Source: a virus
Taxonomy: Duplodnaviria > Caudoviricetes
Virus record (IMG/VR): IMGVR_UViG_3300009671_000010
Location: 47,473 to 111,472 of that record
Reading direction: 5' to 3' (one strand)
DNA: 64,000 bases
Shown piece by piece: positions 43,835 to 60,759 of the stretch (its first letter is position 1; the number at the start of each line of letters is the position of its first letter). The notes beneath the pieces were generated by a model that did not search any database, had not been told where the DNA came from, and worked only from the letters and a program-made list of their open reading frames with translations. Position numbers and translations under genes: made by a program.

Positions 43835-44091
43835 TTTCTATACCATCCCATTTTGTTCATTTCAATTTCTGGTATTTGTTGCAGTGAAAATCCATCAGGT
43901 AATACAAGAATTGGTCGTTCCATATTTAATTGTTTCAAACCATCGAATAAAGATTTAACTATTTCTTCCATCTCTGAAACTTTGATATTTTTTGTATCAA
44001 CTGTACAAACTAATATACTTGAATCATTTAGATTTAATGAATTTAATTTATCCATTAATAAATCACTATACACTATTTTTCTTAGATTCAT
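43831..44091 (-). CDS. Hypothetical protein
   Basis: Overlapping operonic ORF. Confidence 0.6.
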   Translation of the reverse strand: MNLRKIVYSDLLMDKLNSLNLNDSSILVCTVDTKNIKVSEMEEIVKSLFDGLKQLNMERPILVLPDGFSLQQIPEIEMNKMGWYRK

Positions 44092-44599
44092 AATCTATCC
44101 ATACTGTATTGTGTATATCTTCTAGATCTGTTTTTTTAAAATAAATAAATTTATCTTTTCTTCCAAATCTTCTATATAATGTATAAAGTTTCTTATTTTC
44201 ACGAGGAGATAATAATGGCTCCGATAAAATATCTACGGTGTTTTCAACGTAATCAACTAGTTTTACTCTGTTGATTAACATAAATCCGTTTTCTGTTTCA
44301 AACGCAATATAATCAGCTTTACCATAAATCCATCCAGGATATCCAGTAATTCCTTTAATTTCAATACATATCCATTCAGATTGTTGATTATTATCATTTC
44401 TGTTAACTCTTTTCAATCCTTTTACTTCTATTTTATAAGAATTTCCATTAGGATATGTTATTAGCACATCCCAATGTTCAATTCTATCTTGTTTACTTGA
44501 TGCAAAGGAATAATTAATATCTCTATCTTTACACATTCTAGTAAATTTTTCAATGCCTTTTATTCCTATTTGTTCTGAATTATTTGTTTTGAAGTTCAT
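44066..44599 (-). CDS. PD-(D/E)xK-family endonuclease
   Basis: QD..EHWD...IEVKG...WIC.E...GWIYGKADYIAF. Confidence 0.7.
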   Translation of the reverse strand: MNFKTNNSEQIGIKGIEKFTRMCKDRDINYSFASSKQDRIEHWDVLITYPNGNSYKIEVKGLKRVNRNDNNQQSEWICIEIKGITGYPGWIYGKADYIAFETENGFMLINRVKLVDYVENTVDILSEPLLSPRENKKLYTLYRRFGRKDKFIYFKKTDLEDIHNTVWIDYESKKNSV

Positions 44600-47500
44600 G
44601 GTAAATATTTTAAATTCATATGTTTATTATTTAAATCTCTTAAGTCTCTTTTAACTAGTTCTGGATCTAAATTTTTAAATCTATCCTGTTCAAAGTTTAA
44701 TGGAATTGAATCAAGTAAATCTACCCAATCTTCTGTAACAGTATCCCATTGTAATTTCTTTCCAAGATCTATTCCTTTTCTACTATATTCTCTACACATT
44801 TTTTCACTATTATAAAGAAGCTCTAACTGTTTAGCTGTATGATTTACATCAACTAGGGCCTTTATAAAGCCAGTTCGTGTTTCATGTTCGTATGCTGATA
44901 CTTTACTTAATAAAAAAGTATCTTTTCCCCAATCAGCCGCAGCGGAATAGTTAGTAGTTATATTTGGAATACCTGCGGCAGCAGTTTCTAACAAAGGAAG
45001 ACAGTTATGTACAGCAAAACCATCTGTTAAATATGATTCGTCATTTTCTACAGATATATTGTACACTTTTCCAGAATATTCTTTTTTGAATATTTTCTTA
45101 ATTGGTATATAAAAATAATCATTATCTTCTAACACATAATCTATTTTTTTTCTTTTTATTGAAAAATCTATATTATTACATTTATTTATAAATTCTTTAC
45201 ACTTTTTTAAATCTTTAAATAATTGTATTTGTACTACAATAGAATTTCTATTTATTTTTCTTTTTGTAATATATATTTTACTATATATTCCTAAAGTTAG
45301 AAATAAATATTTAATTTGATAAGATAATACTTCACTTGTAGTAGTGTAAACAATACCATTTTTGTTACTTACATGTCCGTCTCCTTCTATTACACCATTT
45401 AAGAATTTTTTACATAAAACCTCATTAGTTTTAAGTATATCATAAATTTCAGTTGGTATTTTTTTATTGTATGCTTTAGATCCAAATGATTTAAATAAAT
45501 TTGATAAGGTTCTAGAAGTGATACATATATTTTCTCTATTTCTTTTCATTATATAGCTCTTATAGTTTAATTTTAATTTATTTGCTAATTCTATTGTATT
45601 ATTTCTAATAATATCATCTGAAGAAGCATTTATTGATATTTTTATATCATCGTGACCGCACGAACCTTCTGCTATATAATTTCCTATAAATTCAGCAGTA
45701 TTCTCATCTATTGTTAGTTTTAAACTTACAGGTTTTGATTTTAAATTAGGTTTATTATTTTTTAATCCATAAATAAAATTATTTTTTTCTACTACTTTAT
45801 ACTCTGTATATTTTTCAATCATGTATTTTGTATCAATTACATTTTCTATACTATCTAACTTTTTGTATTTTGGTAAACATAAATAATGACCTTTATTTAC
45901 AAATCCAGCTGGTACCCATTCTTTTAACAATTCTTTGTTTGCTACAAATAATCTATGATTAGGAGTAAACCATACAGTTAAACTTGAGCCAAGATATTTA
46001 AATCCATACATAGTTCCTGTATAATTTCTAGATAATGGTTCTATTACTTTATTAATATTACCATTATGTGTTATTACTAAATCATCTTTGTTAAAATCTT
46101 GTAATTGTTTAATGCCATCAGGTGTAATTATACGGGTATCACCAAAACTACACCAACCCTCACTATTTGATAATAAAATATGTGCATCAAAACAATTAGC
46201 TATCTCATTTAATTGTGTAGTAGTTGGTCCTTTACCAGGTACTAAATCTTTATTAAAAATACAATATTCATCTACTCCGTAATATTTAGCTAGCCATGGT
46301 AAGTTCCATCCTAATTCATCATTTGGTGAACAATGAAAGTATACTCTCAAGTCTCTATTTGGTTTTTGATACTTCTCTTTGAATATTTTAACAACTTGTA
46401 AAACTGCATCAAATCGCTTGCGCGGTTGGTTACGTGAGATACTATTATGTACACCAACATTTCCTATAACATAACTATTTTTATTTTTAACTTCAAAATT
46501 ATAAACTGTACCATTGAAGTATTTTTTATTAATAGAATTAATCCTTCTATATATAAAATTATTATGTATTTTAATGTGTAATTCTTTTAAATTAGTAGTT
46601 ACTCTATATTTAATTGAATGTTTGGAATTAAGTCTATTGCAATAATTATCAACTGTTATTGAACAAGCTATTTTATTTCTCGCATACAAGATCTCTGCTT
46701 GCCTAGCCATTTCTTTACAGGTTGTTATTACAATTTGTCTACCATCACGAGTATTACAACCATTTCCTTCTTCCCATCCTTTTAAAAATGCAAGTTGTTT
46801 ATAAGGGGGTAATAATAAAAATTCTTTCGAAAGTGACTTAGTTTGGCATTTATCTCCATTCAAAAGTTTTTTAAATAATCTAAACAGTTGTACTGAATTA
46901 ACTTCAATAGTTACATGACCAATATCCATAGAATTTCTATATGATACTCTAGTATTCGTATTTACATTTAGTTTTCTAGAATAATCTTCTACAAATTTAA
47001 TTAACTCTGGTTCTTTTGAATTAAAATTAAAATACAAGCTCGCTTCATATTTTTTTCCTCTTGCCCATGAATATTGAAAGCTTCCTTCAGCAACAAATAA
47101 ACCAAGATATCTCATAAAATCCTCATCCAGTTTTATTTTGTTTGGTAATTTTTTTGCATTTTTCATTTTAACTTCAATTTCATCTGTCGATATTTCATCA
47201 ATATCTATTATATCTGTAATAATTGGTTCTACGAGCCATGATCCTTCTTTTAAATTTTTTATTTCTATCCATTCTGGATCTTGCCTATTAAAACATGTAT
47301 TAATAGATGGATAACCATGTTTTTGATTAGGATGTATAGCATAAAATGGATGTTCTTGTGTTGCTGTGATTGGATCCAATATACCAGCTATGTTGAGTGT
47401 ATATATATCACCATTATATTCTTTTGGATCTGGTGATATGACATAATCTTTTTCACCAAGGTGATTTATTATTTCATCACCTGATTTTATATCCTGAATG

Positions 47501-48294: not shown

Positions 48295-48440
48295 TCTTGT
48301 TCCTGTATTGTTTCCTTTTTAGATTTTCTCTTTTTGTTTTTTATTGGTTGTTTTTCTTCGACTACGGTATCAACTTTTTCATTATCTACTGTAGTTATCA
48401 TGTTATTGATTGGTGGCATTTTTACTTTTCTTAGTAACAT
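48291..48440 (-). CDS. Small Lys/Glu-rich hypothetical protein (49 aa, not in the ORF track)
   Basis: MLLRKVKMPPINNMITTVDNEKVDTVVEEKQPIKNKKRKSKKETIQEQE; fills the gap and has an ATGA overlap with the GT4 gene. Confidence 0.5.
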   Translation of the reverse strand: MLLRKVKMPPINNMITTVDNEKVDTVVEEKQPIKNKKRKSKKETIQEQE

Positions 48441-48654
48441 TTAATTCATCCCTTAATGATGCTATGAAAGTACTATATATTTTACTAATCTGTTTTCTAT
48501 TAAGATTAAATAAATCATTTGATTGTACTTTAAATGAACTACCATGTACTAGTTTAACGTACACAACAAGTTTACTTTCCAGTGGTAGTTCTAAAAATTT
48601 TTGATATACTACTTCTTCAACTTCTTCAGAAATATTAATCTTTTCGTGTGTCAT
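48403..48654 (-). CDS. Stand-alone sigma70 region 4-like HTH protein
   Basis: FLELPLESKLVVYVKLVHGSSF...LFNLNRKQISKIYSTFIASLRDEL follows the LP....V......G.S...(HTH)...LR pattern. Confidence 0.45.
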   Translation of the reverse strand: MTHEKINISEEVEEVVYQKFLELPLESKLVVYVKLVHGSSFKVQSNDLFNLNRKQISKIYSTFIASLRDELNVTKKSKNATNQ

Positions 48655-48823
48655 TGCGGAATTCTTTCAGTTTATCATTGAAAGATTTCCGTGTGTCATC
48701 AGAGGTATAAGCTTGTTCGAGAGGTAATTCTTTATCATCTAAAAGAATCGTATCTATACCACCAGCGTCATCAGAAATTCTTCCAATCTTTTTTCCACTG
48801 GTAGTTACAATTTCTATACTCAT
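48635..48823 (-). CDS. Hypothetical protein
   Basis: GGAG SD; operonic overlap. Confidence 0.55.
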   Translation of the reverse strand: MSIEIVTTSGKKIGRISDDAGGIDTILLDDKELPLEQAYTSDDTRKSFNDKLKEFRNDTRKD

Positions 48824-49499: not shown

Positions 49500-52400
49500 T
49501 TAAAACATACGATCATTATCGACTCGTATAACTTTCTTTTTCTTATCAATTAACTTAGCAATAGTAGACCATTGATCTTCTGTTACTTGTAAGTTCAATG
49601 AATTTAATTTATATGCAAGTTTATCACATTGTCCAGTTAATTTGTTTTTTTCAATAGCTACTTCTATAAACGGATTTACAGTTCCACTATCTTTATCTAA
49701 CCATACAATATTACTTTCTTGTTTTTTAGCTTGATGATCATTATGTACTAAAAATATTACATCAGCATCATATTCTAATTGTACAGAATCTTTAAGATCT
49801 GATAAAGTTGGTCTAGCATCAGTTCCATCTAATTTTCTTAATTCCACTGTGGCAATAATATGTAAATCATTGAGCTGTGTAATCTCTTTTACTTTTTCTG
49901 ATGTATCAGATACAGCTTCTGTCTTCTTACCATTAGCCCCATGAGCAACACCAGATCTTAATTTATGAAAATTGTCTAAAAGAAATACTTTCTTTTTAAA
50001 TTTACAGTTTCGTGTAAACCAATCAACATGTGATTCTAATGCATCAATTGAGTTACCTTTGTTAGCATCAACTATAATAAATCTATTAGAAACAGAGTTT
50101 AACCAATTCCATGCTTCATCTACTTTTTTACGTTCATCTTCAGATAAACTGCTATATTTTTTAATCTTAGTTGATGATAAACCAGATTTCATTGCTAATA
50201 TTTTTAATGTCATTAATTCAGTTGTATCATCGATAGACATGTAACATATGCTGGCTTCTTCATCTGAATCAATCATATCAATTGCTAGTGCTGTTAACCA
50301 ACTTGTATTATGTGTCACTGTTCCATCAGATAATAAAAATAAATGATCACCATCTAATACAACTCCATAGTATTTACCTTTTCCTACTGGTTTAATATCA
50401 AAACCAGTATTAAGATGATTATTTCTATGACTGATAATCTTGCATTTTTTTCTTTCAATTTTTACTGGAATACAGTCTATGTTACCACCTATCAAAATTC
50501 TATGATAGTCTCTAATATCTCCTTCTTTTATCTTTACTTTTTTAATAGTGTATGTAACTGAAAATCCCAGTGAATTTCCTAAGTAAATAATATCTTCACA
50601 TAATCCTTTATACTTAGTAGTAATCTCATAGTAATATTTATTTAAATGCCCATCAGTATCAATCAATCCAGCTAAAAGCTCAAGTCTTTTTTCTCGTGAA
50701 TTATACAGGTATTCTTTTGGAATACGTTTTTCATTATTCAATTTTACATTATTATTAATATATTGCCGTAATGGATTTCTATGATTCAATTTGTTTTTAA
50801 ATAAATATCTATAAGTATTATTTTCTTGATGTGTTTTGGATATTTCTAAATTATTTTTATTTGCAAAATTATGAAAATACTCTTCTACATATTTGCCATC
50901 AGCAGATGTAATTATTATAGTACCATAGTCTCCATCACCTAACCACATGCCTATAAAATATGGATCATATGGAACTTCTTTATTTGGTAGTTCCCATCCA
51001 GTTCTCCATTGTTTTGCGTGGTGTTTAAATTTATTATTTTTTCCAAGATATTCCTTGATAGATAGATTTATTATCTGATCTTTTTTATATACTTTTCCAT
51101 TTGTAGAACTCATTCTTAACGATAGGATGTGTGGTTCATTGCAACCCCATTTCATTCCTGTTTTAGGAATAATTTCATACATTTCTTCTTCTCCAGATCC
51201 AAGTGCAAGCACTTTTCTTGGTTTGGAATCTGGTCCCATTAAAAGATCTCCTACTACTACGTCTTCTATTTTTTTGATATATCCATTATACATAAGTACT
51301 GGCGTTCCAGGCATAAGTGATTTTCCTGATTGTGGACGACCTCCAACTAATGTTAAATTAGTCCAATACGGAATACCATCAAGTCTATCACATAGTTTTC
51401 TAAACTTAACAGGCATAATTCCTTGTACGTAATTACCTTCTTCGATTCTCTGTCTTATTTCTCCAATTTTTTCAACAAAGTCAGTTTGATTATCAATCTT
51501 TTTATTATGAATTTGTTCAACTCTTTTAATCCTAAGCAGAGCATCTTCAAGTATAGACTTAGTGTCACCAATTTTTCTTCTTGTTAATTGAATCTGAAGC
51601 ATTTTATTAATATCTTTTATTTCTTCTAAATATGCTCCAATACTTATATCGAGTTTAAGCTCTACTTCTTTTTTAATATCTTCTTCTGATACGCTAGTAA
51701 TAGATGAAAGATCTTTAATCATCCTAGTTCTAACTATAGGGCTCTCTTCTGCTGCAATGATAGGAATAGCTTTCTGAGCTATAGTTAGTTGATCATCCTG
51801 AAATGTAGCTTTCTTTAATGTCCATGCAAATGGTGTAATAGATTCATTTCTACATTTTTTAATAAATTCATCTGCTCCAATTTCTTTTACTATGTCATCT
51901 GGATCTTTGCCAGATTCCAGTTCAAATATCATTGTACGCATACGACCTTTATTATTACTACAATAAGGAGCTAAACGTTCTATTGCAAGTTCAGTACCTT
52001 TTTTACCACCATCGTCACCATCAAATATAAGATAAATTGTTCTAACATTTGTTCTTAATAATAAGTTAATATGTTCCTCAGTAAGAGTGGTTGATCCTAA
52101 TGCTACTACGTTTGGAACTCCCATTTGAGTTAAATAAATAGCATCTAAATATCCTTCGACAATATATAATGGTCCTTTATCAATCTCGAAATTATTAAAA
52201 TTAAATAATATTTCTGACTTATGATATATATCTGAGTTGACAGAGTTAACAAATTTAGGCTGATGTTCTTTAACTTCTTTTGTTGTTCTTGTTACAAAAC
52301 CTACTGGACGATTTCTATCATCATAGATAGGAATTATAATTCCATCTTTAGTAAATATTTGTTTATTTGCTAAGTCACTACTATATAACCATTCTTTATT

Positions 52401-52961
52401 GTCCCATCCTAATGTTTCCATTTCTTTCATATAAGATGAGTGGCTATCTATACAACCTATCTTAAACTTTCTTATTGCTTCAAGTGAAATACCCCGTTTA
52501 GATAGATTTTCAATTGCAGGATGATCGGTACGAAGTTCGCCTTTTCTGAATATATTAGAATGGCAGATATCGACAGCATCCTGATAAGCTCTTCTACGTT
52601 CATATTCTCTCTTCTGATCCTCGCTAATTTCTATTGGTTCGAATGGAATATCATATAATTTGCATAAATATGGTAATGTATCCTGGAAAAATCCAATACC
52701 TGACAATGGTTTTTTTTCGAATATATTTGCGGCATGTAGTATCCCGAAGCTGCGCTGGCAACTGAAACAATGTGTAACTTTACCAGCATACTCAGAATTA
52801 CCACCTAGTGAACTTGAAGGCGTATGGTCAGGATGACTTGGAGATATACAACTATGAAATCCATCATCTCGTATAACTACACCCTGTTTTCTTAAGTAAT
52901 CTTCCAAATGTATTGATAATTTATCAAATAAATCACCAAGATTATTTTCATTTATTGACAT
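49500..52961 (-). CDS. Fused DnaG-like primase / DnaB-like helicase with intein
   Basis: CHC2 Zn domain (C...H.D..PS...CFSC); TOPRIM IVEGYLD, FDGD and KDPD; Walker A GGRPQSGK|T; LKDSVQLEYDAD. Confidence 0.93.
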   Translation of the reverse strand: MSINENNLGDLFDKLSIHLEDYLRKQGVVIRDDGFHSCISPSHPDHTPSSSLGGNSEYAGKVTHCFSCQRSFGILHAANIFEKKPLSGIGFFQDTLPYLCKLYDIPFEPIEISEDQKREYERRRAYQDAVDICHSNIFRKGELRTDHPAIENLSKRGISLEAIRKFKIGCIDSHSSYMKEMETLGWDNKEWLYSSDLANKQIFTKDGIIIPIYDDRNRPVGFVTRTTKEVKEHQPKFVNSVNSDIYHKSEILFNFNNFEIDKGPLYIVEGYLDAIYLTQMGVPNVVALGSTTLTEEHINLLLRTNVRTIYLIFDGDDGGKKGTELAIERLAPYCSNNKGRMRTMIFELESGKDPDDIVKEIGADEFIKKCRNESITPFAWTLKKATFQDDQLTIAQKAIPIIAAEESPIVRTRMIKDLSSITSVSEEDIKKEVELKLDISIGAYLEEIKDINKMLQIQLTRRKIGDTKSILEDALLRIKRVEQIHNKKIDNQTDFVEKIGEIRQRIEEGNYVQGIMPVKFRKLCDRLDGIPYWTNLTLVGGRPQSGKSLMPGTPVLMYNGYIKKIEDVVVGDLLMGPDSKPRKVLALGSGEEEMYEIIPKTGMKWGCNEPHILSLRMSSTNGKVYKKDQIINLSIKEYLGKNNKFKHHAKQWRTGWELPNKEVPYDPYFIGMWLGDGDYGTIIITSADGKYVEEYFHNFANKNNLEISKTHQENNTYRYLFKNKLNHRNPLRQYINNNVKLNNEKRIPKEYLYNSREKRLELLAGLIDTDGHLNKYYYEITTKYKGLCEDIIYLGNSLGFSVTYTIKKVKIKEGDIRDYHRILIGGNIDCIPVKIERKKCKIISHRNNHLNTGFDIKPVGKGKYYGVVLDGDHLFLLSDGTVTHNTSWLTALAIDMIDSDEEASICYMSIDDTTELMTLKILAMKSGLSSTKIKKYSSLSEDERKKVDEAWNWLNSVSNRFIIVDANKGNSIDALESHVDWFTRNCKFKKKVFLLDNFHKLRSGVAHGANGKKTEAVSDTSEKVKEITQLNDLHIIATVELRKLDGTDARPTLSDLKDSVQLEYDADVIFLVHNDHQAKKQESNIVWLDKDSGTVNPFIEVAIEKNKLTGQCDKLAYKLNSLNLQVTEDQWSTIAKLIDKKKKVIRVDNDRMF
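50307..51320 (-). mobile_element. Intein in the helicase P-loop (338 aa, LAGLIDADG)
   Basis: Starts SLMPGTPVLM and ends FLLSDGTVTHN|T; FIGMWLGDG and LLAGLIDTDG motifs intact. Confidence 0.93.
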
Positions 52962-53149
52962 ATATTTCTTTCTTTATAAGTTACTCTTGTATATGCAAGA
53001 GGAATAACTGTAAGATTTATTCTAATGTATGGAAATGTCATTAAGTTACAACCATAATAATTATATCTATATAAATTATATTTGGATCTATATATTGTTT
53101 TTGATGTTATTAAATCTATGTAATTATAATTAATTTTAGTACATTTCAT
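52952..53149 (-). CDS. Basic Tyr-rich micropeptide
   Basis: 65 aa; overlaps both neighbours; IYRSK motif. Confidence 0.45.
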   Translation of the reverse strand: MKCTKINYNYIDLITSKTIYRSKYNLYRYNYYGCNLMTFPYIRINLTVIPLAYTRVTYKERNICQ

Positions 53150-53484
53150 CTTAAATATACTCCAGATACTGTTAAAGGTGGACTTATATGTAACTCATAA
53201 CTTGTTGGTATTTGAGATATATAACTTCCTGAGACACTAATTGAGTCTGTAGTATATCCCATTGAATATGTATTATTAGTTGTTATTATAGACCAGGGTA
53301 TTGTTAATTCTTCATATAAACTTGATCTATTCCAAAGATTATAACCACTTAGATAAATTAAGTTATATTTATATATTTCATTTATATTTATTTTTGTATA
53401 TACATTTAATAATGATTGATATTTGGTAGTTTTTAAGTGTATAGTGTTAACTATTTTATTATTATATTTGCTTATATATAACAT
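53146..53484 (-). CDS. Basic Tyr-rich small protein with SG-containing C-terminus
   Basis: 112 aa; MLYISKYN start; ATGA overlap downstream. Confidence 0.45.
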   Translation of the reverse strand: MLYISKYNNKIVNTIHLKTTKYQSLLNVYTKININEIYKYNLIYLSGYNLWNRSSLYEELTIPWSIITTNNTYSMGYTTDSISVSGSYISQIPTSYELHISPPLTVSGVYLR

Positions 53485-53499
53485 TTACATATCCATTAA

Positions 53500-53515
53500 G
53501 GGGAGTTTCCTCCCC
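53500..53515 (-). terminator. GC-rich hairpin downstream of erf
   Basis: Minus strand GGGGAG-GAAA-CTCCCC followed by TTAAT (weak U tract). Confidence 0.55.
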
Positions 53516-53522
53516 ATACTAA

Positions 53523-54188
53523 TTAAAGTCCTTTTGGAACTTTATTTTCAATAAAGGTAATCAATTCAAGTAAAAGGGTTTCACTTAATTCTGATATAGC
53601 TTTATATGAAGTTTGTTTGTCTGTATTAAATTCAGGTAAGAAAGCTTTTAAACATTCTTTACCTTTCATGCCATCCTTTTCAAGCTTTTCAACTTTTTTA
53701 ATAGTTGCTTCGCTATAAGTTGTTTTTGTATAGGTTGGTTCATTTTTCTTAACAGTAGGAGCAATTGATATTGTAGGTGCTTTTTTAGTTTGTGGTTTTC
53801 GATCCATGGATTCTTCCGCATCAGAATCTTCTGCTGCTATATTTAAAATAGCACATAATGAATATCGTCGTGCATAACTAATAGTGGCTCCGACCGATTG
53901 AGGATCATTTTTCATAGGATTAATGATGTATTCACCACCTACAAATTGACCAGACTCATGCATTAATAAAGTTTCTAAAATCATCTCATTATTAACCACT
54001 TTAGTAGTTTGAATTACTGATAACTTATTATCAGCAAGCGGTTGTCTTACAGCATCTATACATGCTGCTAAATCACTATACTTGCTTTTAAAAAATGGAT
54101 TTTCTGAATCCTTTATAAGTTTATTATAACTAGCTTGAGCTACAGATAGTGCTTTTGCTAGTTCATTAATATTATCTGATTTAATCAT
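53523..54188 (-). CDS. erf: ERF-family single-strand annealing protein
   Basis: NPFFKSKYSDL, LMHESGQ, PQSVGATISYARRYSL and ED.D motifs. Confidence 0.92.
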   Translation of the reverse strand: MIKSDNINELAKALSVAQASYNKLIKDSENPFFKSKYSDLAACIDAVRQPLADNKLSVIQTTKVVNNEMILETLLMHESGQFVGGEYIINPMKNDPQSVGATISYARRYSLCAILNIAAEDSDAEESMDRKPQTKKAPTISIAPTVKKNEPTYTKTTYSEATIKKVEKLEKDGMKGKECLKAFLPEFNTDKQTSYKAISELSETLLLELITFIENKVPKGL

Positions 54189-54827: not shown

Positions 54828-54855
54828 AATATAATAAATTAAAAATAAATGTCAA
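54828..54855 (-). promoter_or_regulatory. sigma70-type promoter for the HNH gene
   Basis: TTGACA-N16-TATATT, 7 nt before the ATG at 54820; the -35 overlaps the RNA ligase TGA stop. Confidence 0.6.
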
Positions 54856-56541: not shown

Positions 56542-56570
56542 TTGACATATTAATTTTCTTTTATTATATT
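56542..56570 (+). promoter_or_regulatory. sigma70-type promoter for the Cas4-like gene
   Basis: TTGACA-N17-TATATT, then SD AAAGGA and ATG at 56597. Confidence 0.75.
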
Positions 56571-56596: not shown

Positions 56597-57610
56597 ATGG
56601 TAAAGAAAAATTTTATTGAACGTATTTGGAAAACTGACTTAGCTAAATTAAATGACGAAGCATCTGAAAAGACTGGTAAAACAAGAACTGAAAAAACTAT
56701 ATGGCCAAGTGAGGCTATGGTTGATGTTGGTCCATTTTCAGTTGGCGAATGTAAAAGAGCCTTGTTTTATAAACTTATTGGTTCTACCCCAAGTGATCCT
56801 CAAACAATAAGAAGTAAACATATATGTGATGCTGGCTTAATGTATGAAAAGTATTATATTGATAAATATAAAAATCTTGGAATGTTTGTAGATGAGCAAA
56901 TTAAAATAGTATTTTCACCAAATACTCCAAATGGTATTATATTTTCTGGTAAACTTGATCTGATAATTAATGATGAAAATATAAATAAAGGTATTGAAAT
57001 TAAAACTGTAAGTAGCTATAAAGCTGATGAAATATTCGGTAATGATAAAAAACCTTTACCAGCACCAGCTAATTTAATTCAGGCTATGTTATATAAATAT
57101 TATTTTACTCATACCGAAGAAGGTAAAAAGAGTAATGTACAAACAGTATATCTTCAATACATAAATCGTAGTGATAACTCAACTTGCTATTATAAAGTAG
57201 ATTTAGATAATGAAGGTTACGCAGTTATTACTTTTATTGATCAATCTGGTAATGAAACTGAAACTATTAAGTTACAAGATATGCCTTCATATGATGATTT
57301 TATAACTGGAACTGCTATAGCTAAAACAAGTGAAGATTCAAGATTAGCAGATATTAGATTTTCAATACATGATGTATTTAAGAAATGCGACAGTATTTAT
57401 ACATATGTTAATAACAAAATGTTACCTGCACCTGATTATAAAATTGTATATGATCTTAACGATATTGAACTAGAATATAGATGTGCTAGAATATCAAAAA
57501 TTAAATATAATAAAGCTACAAAACAAGGTGAGATGGGTGGATCATCAAGATGTTCATTTTGTTCATATAAAAGAAAATGTTTATCAGATTCTCATTGTGA
57601 ATTAAAATGA
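56597..57610 (+). CDS. Cas4/RecB-like PD-(D/E)xK exonuclease with Fe-S cysteines
   Basis: WPSE...EC.R..FY, GKLDLII, IEIKT, QAMLY and CSFCSYKRKC motifs. Confidence 0.85.
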   Translation: MVKKNFIERIWKTDLAKLNDEASEKTGKTRTEKTIWPSEAMVDVGPFSVGECKRALFYKLIGSTPSDPQTIRSKHICDAGLMYEKYYIDKYKNLGMFVDEQIKIVFSPNTPNGIIFSGKLDLIINDENINKGIEIKTVSSYKADEIFGNDKKPLPAPANLIQAMLYKYYFTHTEEGKKSNVQTVYLQYINRSDNSTCYYKVDLDNEGYAVITFIDQSGNETETIKLQDMPSYDDFITGTAIAKTSEDSRLADIRFSIHDVFKKCDSIYTYVNNKMLPAPDYKIVYDLNDIELEYRCARISKIKYNKATKQGEMGGSSRCSFCSYKRKCLSDSHCELK

Positions 57611-57790
57611 TTTTTTATATTTAGAGCATCGTTTATTTGTATAAGATAATACAAGTCTTGATCTACATATAGATCCATTAACTGTATTATTTAATACTTT
57701 TAATGATGTTCTATATATGCTTGTTATATTTCTTAATTTCCTAGGAACGAGTTTAGTTCTATAAACATAAAAAGATCTATGTATTACCAT
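57602..57790 (-). CDS. Basic micropeptide
   Basis: 62 aa, no Asp or Glu; YRTK, YRTS and CRSR. Confidence 0.45.
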   Translation of the reverse strand: MVIHRSFYVYRTKLVPRKLRNITSIYRTSLKVLNNTVNGSICRSRLVLSYTNKRCSKYKKSF

Positions 57791-57960
57791 GTTGAATCCC
57801 TATAACTGGTAAATGATGTAAAATTGTATTTAGAAAATACTATACTTCTTATGTCATCAGTTGAATAACTGGTTACTATTTTATATTGATACTTAGAAAT
57901 AGTAACTATTGGCTTAGATCTATATATACTTTTTCTAACATTATATATTCTTGTAATCAT
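57784..57960 (-). CDS. Basic micropeptide
   Basis: 58 aa from ATG 57960 (MITRIY); IYRSK. Confidence 0.45.
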   Translation of the reverse strand: MITRIYNVRKSIYRSKPIVTISKYQYKIVTSYSTDDIRSIVFSKYNFTSFTSYRDSTW

Positions 57961-58123
57961 ATATACTACACCTATAATGTCTATATGTTGAAACACATTT
58001 TCCTTTAGTCCTACTAAGAGAAGCAAACCTTATTAATGAATGTTTTTTACTATGATATGTTTGATTCAAAACTCTATATTTAATATATAATGTTTTATAA
58101 ATTGTAAATAACCTAGTTAGCAT
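57941..58123 (-). CDS. Basic micropeptide
   Basis: 60 aa (MLTRLF); SRTK. Confidence 0.45.
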   Translation of the reverse strand: MLTRLFTIYKTLYIKYRVLNQTYHSKKHSLIRFASLSRTKGKCVSTYRHYRCSIYDYKNI

Positions 58124-58280
58124 ATTTTGATACCCTTTTACTGTTGTATACAGACATACATCACAACATATTATTTTTAAAGCGGTAAAATGTATACAAT
58201 CATTTTATTGGAAGTTCAATAGTTACATAAAAAGTACTTTTAAATGGATGATGTGTATTATATTTTACAATGTATAATAT
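58113..58280 (-). pseudogene. Decayed (or recoded) member of the basic micropeptide array
   Basis: ATA-LYIVKYN...IELPIK[TGA]LYTFYRFKNNML[TGA]CMSVYNSKRVSKYAN-TAG; 55 codons, exactly filling the gap between two array members. Confidence 0.4.
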
Positions 58281-58458
58281 AATTTGTTCTTGATTTTAAA
58301 TTATAAGCTGTTCTAAAAAATGTTTTTGTTGGAATAATTTGCCCAGTATATCTACTAAAGTAGCTACTACTTTGAAAAATATATCTTGTTCTATAAAATC
58401 TTTTATATCTTGACATCTTAGTATAAATTCTCGATTTATTATACATCATTAATTTCAT
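58258..58458 (-). CDS. Basic micropeptide
   Basis: 66 aa, no Asp or Glu; FYRTR, FRTA and SRTN. Confidence 0.45.
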   Translation of the reverse strand: MKLMMYNKSRIYTKMSRYKRFYRTRYIFQSSSYFSRYTGQIIPTKTFFRTAYNLKSRTNYIIHCKI

Positions 58459-59242
58459 TTTTTATACCCAACATATAATCTATTTCTTCTAAACAATGTG
58501 GTTGGTCTTTATCTATTCCAAATCTAAGTATTATCTTTTTCTGTTCTTCTTCAGAAAGATGCTTTATGCTATTTATAATATTATTAGCCATTTTTGAAAA
58601 AAGTTTATTATTATCTTCTACGATCATTTGGTCATTATATTCGACTATAAACGATTCTTCGTTCTCTGCCGAATTTAAACTAAGTAGATTTTTAATATCA
58701 TCTACAATTGTTAATGTAACATCTATGTTTTTATTTAATTTAAGCCATTCTAATATCTCTAATGAACTCGGTTCTTTTTCGTTCCTGGTAAATAAATCAT
58801 TCATTGCTTCGCTTATATTTTTTATATTTCTAGCAATTTCTCGTGGAGCTTTTATTAGTTTATGATTCTTTATAAAATCAATAAGTCTTTTTTTTACATG
58901 AAAATAAGCATATGTAGTAAATGAGATATTCTTACTTACATCAAATGCATCTATAGATTCTGTAATACCAATCATAGCTTCTTGAAATAGATCTGCTATG
59001 ACCGAATCATCCCGTAATGTTGCATAGTATATCTTAACATATTTCATTGCAAAACCACCATTAGATAATACAATTTTATCTCTTATTCTTTTTGCTTCTA
59101 ATTCTTTACATGGATCATTTTTAATATCATTTAATTTTTTTAATAATATATCATTATCATGTTTATTAGGTGTAGATATTTTATTTATATACCATCCTAT
59201 TGCTTTTTTGAGTCCTGTAAATTCCTGTATATTTCTACTCAT
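58439..59242 (-). CDS. Phage sigma70-family RNA polymerase sigma factor, truncated in region 4.2
   Basis: RDKIVLSN, DLFQEAMIGI..SIDAFD....SFTTYAYFHV, EPSSLEI and LSEEEQKKIILRFG...LEEI..MLGI, then stop. Confidence 0.88.
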   Translation of the reverse strand: MSRNIQEFTGLKKAIGWYINKISTPNKHDNDILLKKLNDIKNDPCKELEAKRIRDKIVLSNGGFAMKYVKIYYATLRDDSVIADLFQEAMIGITESIDAFDVSKNISFTTYAYFHVKKRLIDFIKNHKLIKAPREIARNIKNISEAMNDLFTRNEKEPSSLEILEWLKLNKNIDVTLTIVDDIKNLLSLNSAENEESFIVEYNDQMIVEDNNKLFSKMANNIINSIKHLSEEEQKKIILRFGIDKDQPHCLEEIDYMLGIKNEINDV

Positions 59243-59712
59243 ATTATTTTTTCTATGTAAATGGCATTTCTACCACCTGTCGTAAATCTTCTTACTCTAT
59301 TGCTGTCTGGATCTAATATTATATCCGCTTTATCATAAAAGCATGGATCTTTTTCATAATAATCGATTATCCACTCATCTAATGAATTAGATTCTACTAC
59401 TGGTGTATTAACATAATAACCAATTATACTTGGTTCTATATTTAATTCTTTTGCTATTGTTTCATATGTTTTCTTTTTAGATCTTAATTCTTTAACTTTT
59501 TTATGCACTTCTATCTCTTCTTTTTTAACTGGAATTTTGATAGAAGTACAATATTTTCTCATTTCTAGAGGGGTTTTTTCTTTACTCCACACAAATATTT
59601 TTTTGTTTGCTCGGAGTAATACATCTAATTCTCCCGCTAGTTTGAGTTTGTCGCTCTGTTCTATAATCTTGAAATCTATGAAAACATTTTGACCTGTTTT
59701 TATATCTTGCAT
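59239..59712 (-). CDS. Hypothetical protein: degenerate HAD-like scaffold with inserted HTH
   Basis: NVFIDF...IFVWS...DIILD frame enclosing ELRSKKKTYETIAKELNIEPSIIGYY. Confidence 0.45.
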   Translation of the reverse strand: MQDIKTGQNVFIDFKIIEQSDKLKLAGELDVLLRANKKIFVWSKEKTPLEMRKYCTSIKIPVKKEEIEVHKKVKELRSKKKTYETIAKELNIEPSIIGYYVNTPVVESNSLDEWIIDYYEKDPCFYDKADIILDPDSNRVRRFTTGGRNAIYIEKII

Positions 59713-59773
59713 ATTTACCTGCCCTATATCCTTTTATTAAACCAGAAATAATTATATTCAATATATTATTCAT
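59582..59773 (-). CDS. Basic leader ORF overlapping the 59712 gene
   Basis: Strong SD AAAGGAG directly downstream of a consensus promoter. Confidence 0.4.
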   Translation of the reverse strand: MNNILNIIISGLIKGYRAGKYARYKNRSKCFHRFQDYRTERQTQTSGRIRCITPSKQKNICVE

Positions 59774-59791
59774 AACATCTCCTTTATTAAT

Positions 59792-59820
59792 AATATAATA
59801 AAGAATAAATGCTATGTCAA
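59792..59820 (-). promoter_or_regulatory. sigma70-type promoter upstream of the sigma-factor operon
   Basis: TTGACA-N17-TATATT; the -35 overlaps the TGA stop of the 59817-59960 ORF. Confidence 0.75.
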
Positions 59821-59960
59821 TGTCTATGTATTGTTACATATGAATAGTTATACCATGAAAAACTATTATAGCTATGTGTAATAAAACAGCTATGAATATA
59901 TTTTGAATTTTTTGTTCTATATAGAGTTTTACTATGTCTAATACTAACTAAATTATACAT
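59817..59960 (-). CDS. Basic micropeptide (47 aa, not in the ORF track)
   Basis: MYNLVSIRHSKTLYRTKNSKYIHSCFITHSYNSFSWYNYSYVTIHRH; no acidic residues. Confidence 0.45.
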   Translation of the reverse strand: MYNLVSIRHSKTLYRTKNSKYIHSCFITHSYNSFSWYNYSYVTIHRH

Positions 59961-60136
59961 TTCTTTTTATATATTGAAAAACATTGATTTTGATACCATG
60001 AATTACTACATACTAATCCTGCTCTATAATATGTTAGTACTCTTGGAGTTCTATGTGTTGTTATAAATTTGGATCTTTTTGGTGTTAATAAACTTATATT
60101 TTTATTATTAATATTTATTAAAAAATAATATAACAT
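59948..60136 (-). CDS. Basic micropeptide
   Basis: 62 aa, no Asp or Glu; MLYYF start; KRSK and HRTP. Confidence 0.45.
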   Translation of the reverse strand: MLYYFLININNKNISLLTPKRSKFITTHRTPRVLTYYRAGLVCSNSWYQNQCFSIYKKKCII

Positions 60137-60150
60137 ATTAATCTACATTT

Positions 60151-60759
60151 CTAATGTTTAATAAATGCAATATTAGTCTTGGTTTCTGTTTTACACAAAT
60201 CACATGATGCACATGAATTCTTTTCACCTGGACATAATATATAATTCTCAGGTAATTCTGATTTATTATTTATTACTACTGTTGATCCAGTCAATCCAGG
60301 ACCATACCATCCAGAACCTTTAACTAAAAACTTACAATCTTTAAAATTTAAATCTGATCGAGCTGTATATCCATATGTGGTTATATTAAATTCATGTTTA
60401 ATGGATTCAGATATAGTTGATAATTTTGATATATCTTTCTGCTCTTCAAAATCACCTGATTCATTAAATCTAAAATATTTAACTGGTGATTTCTTTTTGC
60501 TTATTATATTTTTAATATCAGCTATTATTTCTTCAGCAGTTTTTTCTTTCCAGTATTTACTTTGATTTTCTCTATAATTTAATACATTATCTTTATATTG
60601 TTGTTCAGCTTTAAATGCATAGCACCTAGTTTTATTATTAACTACTTTACATAGACCTAATCTTTTTGAAGGACAGGCAGTAGCGGTACTCATATTGAAA
60701 ATCATAGTATCTTTTCCAATCTTATGATTTCCAAATTTAATAAGGTAATTTAGTTTCAT
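60151..60759 (-). CDS. Phage Gp88-like protein (radical-SAM-like Fe-S protein)
   Basis: GNHK, CP...C...CYA, FRFNESGDF, YGYT, and CPG...CASCDLC...F..H. Confidence 0.75.
   Translation of the reverse strand: MKLNYLIKFGNHKIGKDTMIFNMSTATACPSKRLGLCKVVNNKTRCYAFKAEQQYKDNVLNYRENQSKYWKEKTAEEIIADIKNIISKKKSPVKYFRFNESGDFEEQKDISKLSTISESIKHEFNITTYGYTARSDLNFKDCKFLVKGSGWYGPGLTGSTVVINNKSELPENYILCPGEKNSCASCDLCKTETKTNIAFIKH

Follow-up and report, generated by a model that had tools for sequence, protein, structure and literature searches.

The window analysed here is a 64,000-nucleotide (nt) stretch of a Caudoviricetes genome (IMG/VR record IMGVR_UViG_3300009671_000010, positions 47,473 to 111,472; coordinates below are those of the window) that forms the last 64 kb of a 111,472-bp contig with 27.7% GC, and it carries eight short, almost acid-free open reading frames (ORFs), called micro-ORFs here, in three gaps of a minus-strand replication and transcription module. 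Family searches assign to this module an intein-bearing PolB, a GP88-like protein (60151-60759), a putative regulator of 157 amino acids (aa), p157 (59239-59712), a sigma-70-like factor (58439-59242), an RNA ligase, an HNH/Endo VII protein, an ERF recombinase (53523-54188) and an intein-bearing primase-helicase (49500-52961), together with a convergent plus-strand gene for a Cas4/RecE-like nuclease (56597-57610; Cas4-like below). All micro-ORF sites lie within the module, in region A (57611-58438) between the sigma factor and the Cas4-like gene, region B (59713-60150) between the GP88-like gene and p157, and region C (52962-53522) between the ERF and primase-helicase genes. Our analysis of the sequence suggests, with a probability that we put at roughly one half, that the eight ORFs are genuine, translated, lineage-specific accessory genes occupying three variable early or replication slots, in which composition and a short motif rather than a fold would be the object of selection.

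All eight ORFs named in an initial annotation of this DNA are present on the minus strand, with lengths of 47-112 aa. Region A begins with m66 (58258-58458; 66 aa, isoelectric point (pI) 10.6, no Asp or Glu), which has GG 10-11 nt before its ATG, and continues with m60 (57941-58123; 60 aa, pI 10.2), preceded by AAGGG at 11-12 nt, and m58 (57784-57960), which encodes 58 aa from the ATG at 57960, 12 nt after AGGTG, and would encode 80 aa (57784-58026) from a TTG at 58026. An internal direct repeat of m58, D6 (57802-57836 and 57865-57899), has a spacing of 63 nt and is in frame. The last ORF of the region, m62a (57602-57790; 62 aa, pI 11.1, charge about +15, no Asp or Glu), has AGGG 9-10 nt upstream and shares its last 9 nt with the convergent Cas4-like gene. 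Region B holds m62b (59948-60136; 62 aa), which starts 14 nt past the GP88-like stop, and m47 (59817-59960; 47 aa), both free of Asp and Glu, and region C holds m112 (53146-53484; 112 aa), an atypical member rich in Tyr, Ser, Thr, Asn and Ile with 4% acidic residues, and m65 (52952-53149; 65 aa), with GGAG 14 nt upstream. The overlapping starts and stops that had been described for these ORFs are equally real, at 20 nt between the sigma stop and the m66 start and between m60 and m58, 7 nt for m58/m62a, 13 nt for m62b/m47, a common ATGA for m112/m65 and 10 nt for m65/primase. The ATG of the primase-helicase has no Shine-Dalgarno (SD) sequence and falls inside the last codons of m65, and translational coupling between the two is likely. 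As for the decayed slot proposed within region A, the interval 58124-58257 is indeed free of ORFs, and no significant RNA fold was found there either.

The evidence that these frames are coding begins with their tiling. Counting ORFs of at least 45 codons and taking 2000 dinucleotide shuffles as the null, minus-strand ORF coverage was 93% in region A (0/2000 shuffles), 74% in region B (P=0.0065) and 93% in region C (0/2000), against a mean of 10-13% in the shuffles, and plus-strand tiling of the same regions was ordinary. The regions have 20-23% GC, at which frames of this length are rare. In a first-order Markov simulation of 3 Mb, the 2353 open frames of at least 47 codons had GC contents at the three codon positions (GC1/2/3) of 0.245/0.234/0.221 and 4.4% Asp+Glu, compared with 0.17/0.37/0.11 and a mean of 1.8% in the eight ORFs (P<5e-5 for the GC2-GC3 gap and for Tyr+Arg; P=0.001 for Asp+Glu). 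Tiling, periodicity and acid shortage are all above chance, and the comparison with shuffled DNA that the initial annotation had called for returned no similar tiling or composition from either shuffles or simulation. Ribosome-binding sites point the same way: GG dinucleotides are scarce in the micro-ORF regions, and GG stands 6-14 nt before the ATG in six of the eight ORFs (background 11% of positions, binomial P=5e-5) compared with 6/31 of the other ATGs in these regions (Fisher P=0.006). Ordinary genes of this phage mostly have an SD sequence. A codon-usage model fits best in frame 0 for 8/8 ORFs. The +1 frame contains 51 stops versus 55.6 in codon shuffles (P=0.18) and the +2 frame has stops in excess; with a +1 count no different from codon shuffles, no other frame appears to be under selection.

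Several readings other than that of sense-strand genes were tried and set aside. A tRNA or non-coding RNA cluster was rejected as ARAGORN and Rfam gave no match, and a structured RNA because neither region A nor the ORF-free gap forms a fold better than that of its shuffles (z = -0.5 and +0.8). Under an alternative genetic code the other frames are not rescued, each having many TAA plus other stops. In m66 a shift of one base turns AGA, ACA and TAT into GAN, CAN and ATN, which gives parts of the +1 frame a protein-like look; a hidden gene in that frame was discarded, its stop count matching that of codon shuffles. Position-specific base composition is unlike that of either an off-frame or an antisense reading of a normal gene. 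What marks a structured RNA, a tRNA cluster or a gene with recoded stop codons is not found here, and frame length, periodicity and ribosome-binding sites are those of protein-coding sequence.

The composition of the predicted products sets them apart from the remainder of the proteome. Pooled over the seven short ORFs (m112 left out; 420 aa), they contain 12.6% Tyr, 11.0% Ser, 10.2% Ile, 9.8% Thr, 9.5% Lys and 9.3% Arg, with only 1.2% Asp, 1.2% Gly, 1.0% Ala and 0.2% Glu, amounting to 19% Arg+Lys, 1.4% Asp+Glu and 2.2% Gly+Ala, and their pI values are 9.6-11.1 with net charges of +6 to +15. The near-lack of Asp and Glu noted initially is borne out (1.4% vs 12% in phage genes) with the correction that Gly and Ala are depleted too, and the term polycationic suits most members but not m112, which is only mildly basic (pI 9.0). 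In codons per 1000, micro-ORFs against the normal genes of the phage, GAA occurs at 2.4 vs 57, GAT at 9.5 vs 55, Gly codons (GGA+GGT) at 10 vs 47 and Ala codons (GCA+GCT) at 10 vs 31, with AGA at 76 vs 25, ACA at 67 vs 26, TAT at 114 vs 46 and AGT at 36 vs 18. Codons for Asp, Glu, Gly and Ala are depleted 3-24x and those for Arg, Thr, Tyr and Ser enriched 2-3x, with Val unchanged (GTA+GTT, 43 vs 46), and the bias is set at the amino-acid level. That Val is not depleted speaks against a simple G-to-A drift; G-to-A hypermutation of normal genes was likewise rejected, as Val is kept and the second codon position is enriched in G. A classifier built on this composition and run over all six frames of the 111-kb genome retrieved exactly six of these ORFs and nothing else.

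Within these sequences the loose motif that had been pointed out is real, [YFHS]R[ST][KR] occurring 6 times against 0.5 expected from residue shuffles and [YFH]R[ST] 9 times against 1.6, a density of 21 per 1000 aa compared with 0.57 in the normal proteome (about 40x), although these statistics are post hoc for the window ORFs and the independent test is the one on a second phage given below. The accompanying statement that no DNA-level repeats are obvious stands for long direct or inverted repeats and fails for the 8-mer YATAGAWC, of which 8/21 minus-strand genome copies fall within these 1.8 kb, or 1.6% of the genome. Such a concentration, with four copies within 210 bp of region A and replication genes all around, could suit an array of protein-binding sites, origin-like iterons or processing sites in which the ORFs are incidental. 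We regard such non-coding DNA or RNA elements as an unlikely explanation, since nothing is conserved outside the 8-mer, long repeats, Rfam or tRNA matches and RNA structure are all missing, and 14/15 ATAGA words lie in one codon phase, xAT-AGA; an array of words would also leave ORF length, periodicity and SD placement unexplained. An extended DNA motif was rejected along with iterons, the sole recurrence being an 8-mer in fixed codon phase, and YATAGAWC is the codon image of Tyr/His-Arg-Ser/Thr.

Comparison with relatives, which were reached through sigma homologues, shows how quickly the slots change. The closest strain, L001, has 98% DNA identity to the window; its region B, m62b included, is identical, and region C, m112 included, is invariant in four other samples. 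Samples in which this phage occurs include JGI 3300019224 and 3300019237 and ENA ERZ795066. In L001, m66 encodes 56 aa through an in-frame 30-bp deletion (58357-58386) accompanied by three nonsynonymous changes, and a 298-bp minus-strand cassette comprising a leader, m60 and the 5' part of m58 (57870-58167) is absent, a difference known from a single short assembled contig, so that m60 is gone, m58 truncated and m62a retained. In this one strain, with six substitutions to judge by, the frames are kept where the ORFs are retained, which is the outcome of the check on a close relative that the initial annotation had called for. Across 57700-60380, 10/15 substitutions have G in the window (minus strand) and A (7) or T (3) in L001, which suggests a strand-biased mutation or damage spectrum for the differences between the two.

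A second phage, L002, provides the independent comparison. Its sigma factor is 66% identical and the flanks have 72-76% DNA identity; the slot itself is unalignable. Two sense ORFs of 64 and 68 aa nonetheless cover 98% of that slot, vs 20% in shuffles (P=0.001), with the same periodicity and composition as the window micro-ORFs, and the motif defined on the window is enriched in them (4 vs 0.68, P=0.002). The motif is spelled TAC AGA TCT, TAT AGA AGT and TAT CGC ACT in L002 and TAT AGA ACN in the window, and its occurrence with a different Arg codon argues that what is conserved is the peptide and not the DNA, a further point against non-coding elements. Farther away the class disappears. L003 (67%) has an ordinary membrane-type protein of 113 aa in the slot, and in relatives at 36-51% synteny is kept and the slots hold ordinary genes with 13-23% Asp+Glu; none of these relatives, a phage of 23% GC included, has an ORF of the micro-ORF class, and the composition classifier found one ORF in L002 and none in nine more distant relatives (one of 23% GC). 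Sigma and Cas4-like queries run against viral, metagenome and genome contigs reached only distant loci, and a Cas4-like homologue with 71% identity, P0065, is encoded on a 37-kb Logan contig.

Elsewhere in the window, a minus-strand gene of 177 aa (44066-44599) is homologous (37% identity, E=1e-19) to the gene that stands between the sigma and Cas4-like genes in L004 and L005. The presence of this intact homologue indicates that the occupant of slot A was moved or replaced in this phage. Relatives with ordinary 92-201-aa genes in the sigma-flanking slots and, close by, GIY-YIG or Endo VII genes in the stretch from the Cas4-like gene to the primase, an intein-rich genome with an HNH/Endo VII gene of similarly basic composition, and the alternation of region A ORFs between two frames might together recommend reading the micro-ORFs as the frameshifted remains of genes that once filled the slots, either ordinary accessory genes or free-standing homing endonuclease genes. 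We find this quite improbable. Searching regions A, B and C by tblastn with the relatives' slot proteins and endonucleases gave no signal, and decayed copies of either were rejected on that ground; the slot-A gene of the relatives is intact at 44066-44599; pseudogenes would retain Asp, Glu, Gly and Ala and gather stops; and the fragments all start with an ATG of their own, in most cases behind an SD sequence.

Several points weigh against genuine, selected genes. Pfam and PHROG scans returned no family for any of the eight ORFs; m62a has no homologue among 5.8 billion proteins, the sole match of m66 among 1.84 billion representatives is its L001 strain variant, neither has a homologue in cultured phages (INPHARED), the ESM Atlas yielded nothing beyond the ORFs themselves, and the clusters checked were all singletons. 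Structure prediction was uninformative, with a predicted local distance difference test (pLDDT) score of 52 from AlphaFold2 (AF2) and 0.46 from ESM for m62a and an AF2 pLDDT of 28 for m112. Paralogy among the micro-ORFs is weak (best z = 4.7 for m47/m65 and 4.2 for m62a/m60; mean 0.37 over 45 pairs). The rapidly diversifying family of polycationic peptides proposed initially therefore survives in its composition, short motif and fast diversification and not as a single homologous family: the weak pairwise similarity makes it a compositional class without proven common descent. Two members, m62b and m47, lack an SD sequence and directly abut or overlap the preceding ORF, and codon-usage likelihood favours the ORF frame only marginally for m66, m47 and m60. 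The six substitutions available are too sparse for a ratio of nonsynonymous to synonymous rates (dN/dS), and the three in m66 are all nonsynonymous. The loss of m60 and m58 in a 98% strain implies that single copies are dispensable.

The same observations lend some weight to a reading in which the products are translated but neutral, the ORFs being young proto-genes or 'spacers' kept open only for ribosome coverage, coupling and the avoidance of polarity. The ORFs are orphans without a predicted fold, single ones are lost between strains, and the m112-m65-primase chain, with its ATGA overlap and the SD-less primase start inside m65, is what such spacers might look like. A GC2 of 37% and an enrichment of Arg, Thr and Ser that spares Val are unexpected from neutral AT drift, however, and the peptide motif recurs in L002 with a different Arg codon. 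Moreover, region A ends an operon that faces a convergent gene, so no downstream gene there needs coupling. Product-neutral spacers are accordingly plausible for region C and not for region A, and as an account of the set as a whole we consider them a possibility of modest weight.

If the micro-ORFs are instead genuine accessory genes, selection would act on composition and on the short motif Tyr/Phe/His-Arg-Ser/Thr rather than on a fold, and this would let sequences diverge past alignment and copies be gained and lost between strains. The products would probably be disordered and would bind a polyanion during host takeover, with nucleic acid of the host or the phage as the likeliest target, Arg and Lys supplying charge and Tyr stacking. 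This proposal draws on charge, Tyr content and genomic setting. Nucleic-acid binding, decoys and enzyme substrates, the roles named in the initial annotation, are candidate functions at most. In region C, translation of m65 would probably also bring ribosomes to the SD-less primase-helicase start. We tentatively entertain a more specific version, one that we would not favour at present, in which acid-free microproteins arose where short motifs were duplicated locally or where AT-rich DNA had held no gene before, and in which Tyr/Arg 'stickers' with Ser/Thr/Lys 'spacers', built on Tyr-Arg-Ser/Thr as the unit, for example condense or coacervate host or phage nucleic acid at takeover; such action by composition would explain why composition and motif last while sequence, number and presence change.

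A different role, as precursors or substrates of a phage enzyme, for instance in a Tyr/Arg/Ser/Thr modification by the GP88-like protein akin to that of ribosomally synthesized and post-translationally modified peptides (RiPPs), is suggested by the position of m62b and m47 directly after the GP88-like gene, by a SPASM-domain protein at the GP88 position in one relative, and by the repeated short motifs and hypervariability typical of precursor peptides. Regions A and C are not adjacent to that gene, relatives keep GP88 without such ORFs, and the GP88-like protein, the one candidate among the neighbours, has no recognised maturase domain or solved relative. Neither an adjacent maturase nor a conserved leader common to the ORFs was found, and we judge this role very unlikely; like the readings as DNA elements and as pseudogenes, it is contradicted by one direct test or more.

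Among known systems, the closest likeness in setting is with the hyperplastic regions of T4-type phages, the plastic periphery between core genes. The ORFans of such regions, to be seen beside phage small proteins in general (reviewed in PMC11323111), are likewise short, packed and co-directional, lie between conserved replication and transcription genes and have no homologues. Here, too, conserved core genes flank the slots and the contents differ among relatives; the extreme composition and the Tyr-Arg-Ser/Thr motif of the micro-ORFs are not a described property of such ORFans. Viral protamine-like DNA-condensing proteins such as baculovirus P6.9 and the adenovirus core peptides are much richer in Arg, late, structural and conserved. 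They resemble the micro-ORFs in being about 50-60 aa long, acid-free and rich in Arg, Ser, Thr and Tyr; the micro-ORFs differ in having 9.3% Arg and 9.5% Lys, in lying in an early or replication module and in being dispensable between strains. Very high Arg, late expression and conservation are not found in the micro-ORFs, which are absent from relatives. The MotB protein of T4 is larger and folded, and Pfam and PHROG scans gave no sequence relation between it and the micro-ORFs. As cited in PMC11323111, MotB is an early nucleoid-associated basic protein (Son et al. 2021, PMC8450097), and on that account its basic character, early expression, variable-region location and non-specific DNA binding may serve as a working model for the micro-ORFs.

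Phage genomes contain millions of unexplained small genes, and the present case combines statistical evidence of coding at 25% GC, a setting with few open frames, with a compositional signature and a motif that outlast sequence. Should the peptides be made, a virus would provide a manageable case of gene birth or of selection acting on composition, as well as natural Tyr/Arg-rich polycations that are candidates for toxicity, for shutting off the host or for binding nucleic acid. Should they not be made, strong ORF-like statistics without function would matter for small-gene prediction.

The transcriptional setting is consistent with genuine accessory genes. A sigma70-type promoter, TTGACA-17-TATATT, at 59792-59820 on the minus strand would serve a unit composed of a 63-aa ORF (o63, described below), p157, sigma and region A, and the stop of m47 falls within its -35 box. 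Near-identical copies with spacers of 16-17 nt stand at 56542-56570 (+) and 54828-54855 (-), all three sharing ATTGACAT, followed by the 16-17 nt spacer and TATATT. The first stands before the p157/sigma unit, the second before the Cas4-like gene and the third before the HNH/ERF/primase unit, and all are likely to be early promoters for host RNA polymerase. The o63-p157-sigma unit has region A at its 3' end and the HNH-ERF-primase unit encloses region C, and this apparent placement of the micro-ORFs within early operons behind three near-identical promoters supports their reading as early accessory genes.

Several smaller observations concern the same module. Between the ERF stop and m112, 15 nt before the latter, lies a GC-rich minus-strand hairpin (53500-53515) with a 6-bp stem and a GAAA loop; it has no T-run and the terminator scan made no call there, and its role may lie in processing or stabilisation rather than in termination. 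Another gap of the module (48295-48819, minus strand) contains three short ORFs of 62, 83 and 49 aa with normal composition in three different frames, which are small genes in their own right or else the pieces of a single frameshifted gene. At the position of the GP88-like gene, L008 (50% sigma identity) encodes a protein with a SPASM iron-sulfur domain (L008:1-813), a hint at a possible relationship between GP88-like proteins and radical-SAM-type enzymes. The 63-aa ORF o63 (59582-59773, minus strand) has a strong AAGGAG SD sequence, starts 61 nt upstream of p157 and covers the first ~43 codons of p157 in a different frame. Its exact sequence is absent from the protein collection searched. 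Counterparts of 54-70 aa precede the p157 homologue in L003, L004, L005/6, L008, L015 and L016 (26-43% GC) and have in common a Gly-spaced N-terminal pattern and a basic Tyr/His-Arg segment, and o63 is probably a conserved overlapping small gene.

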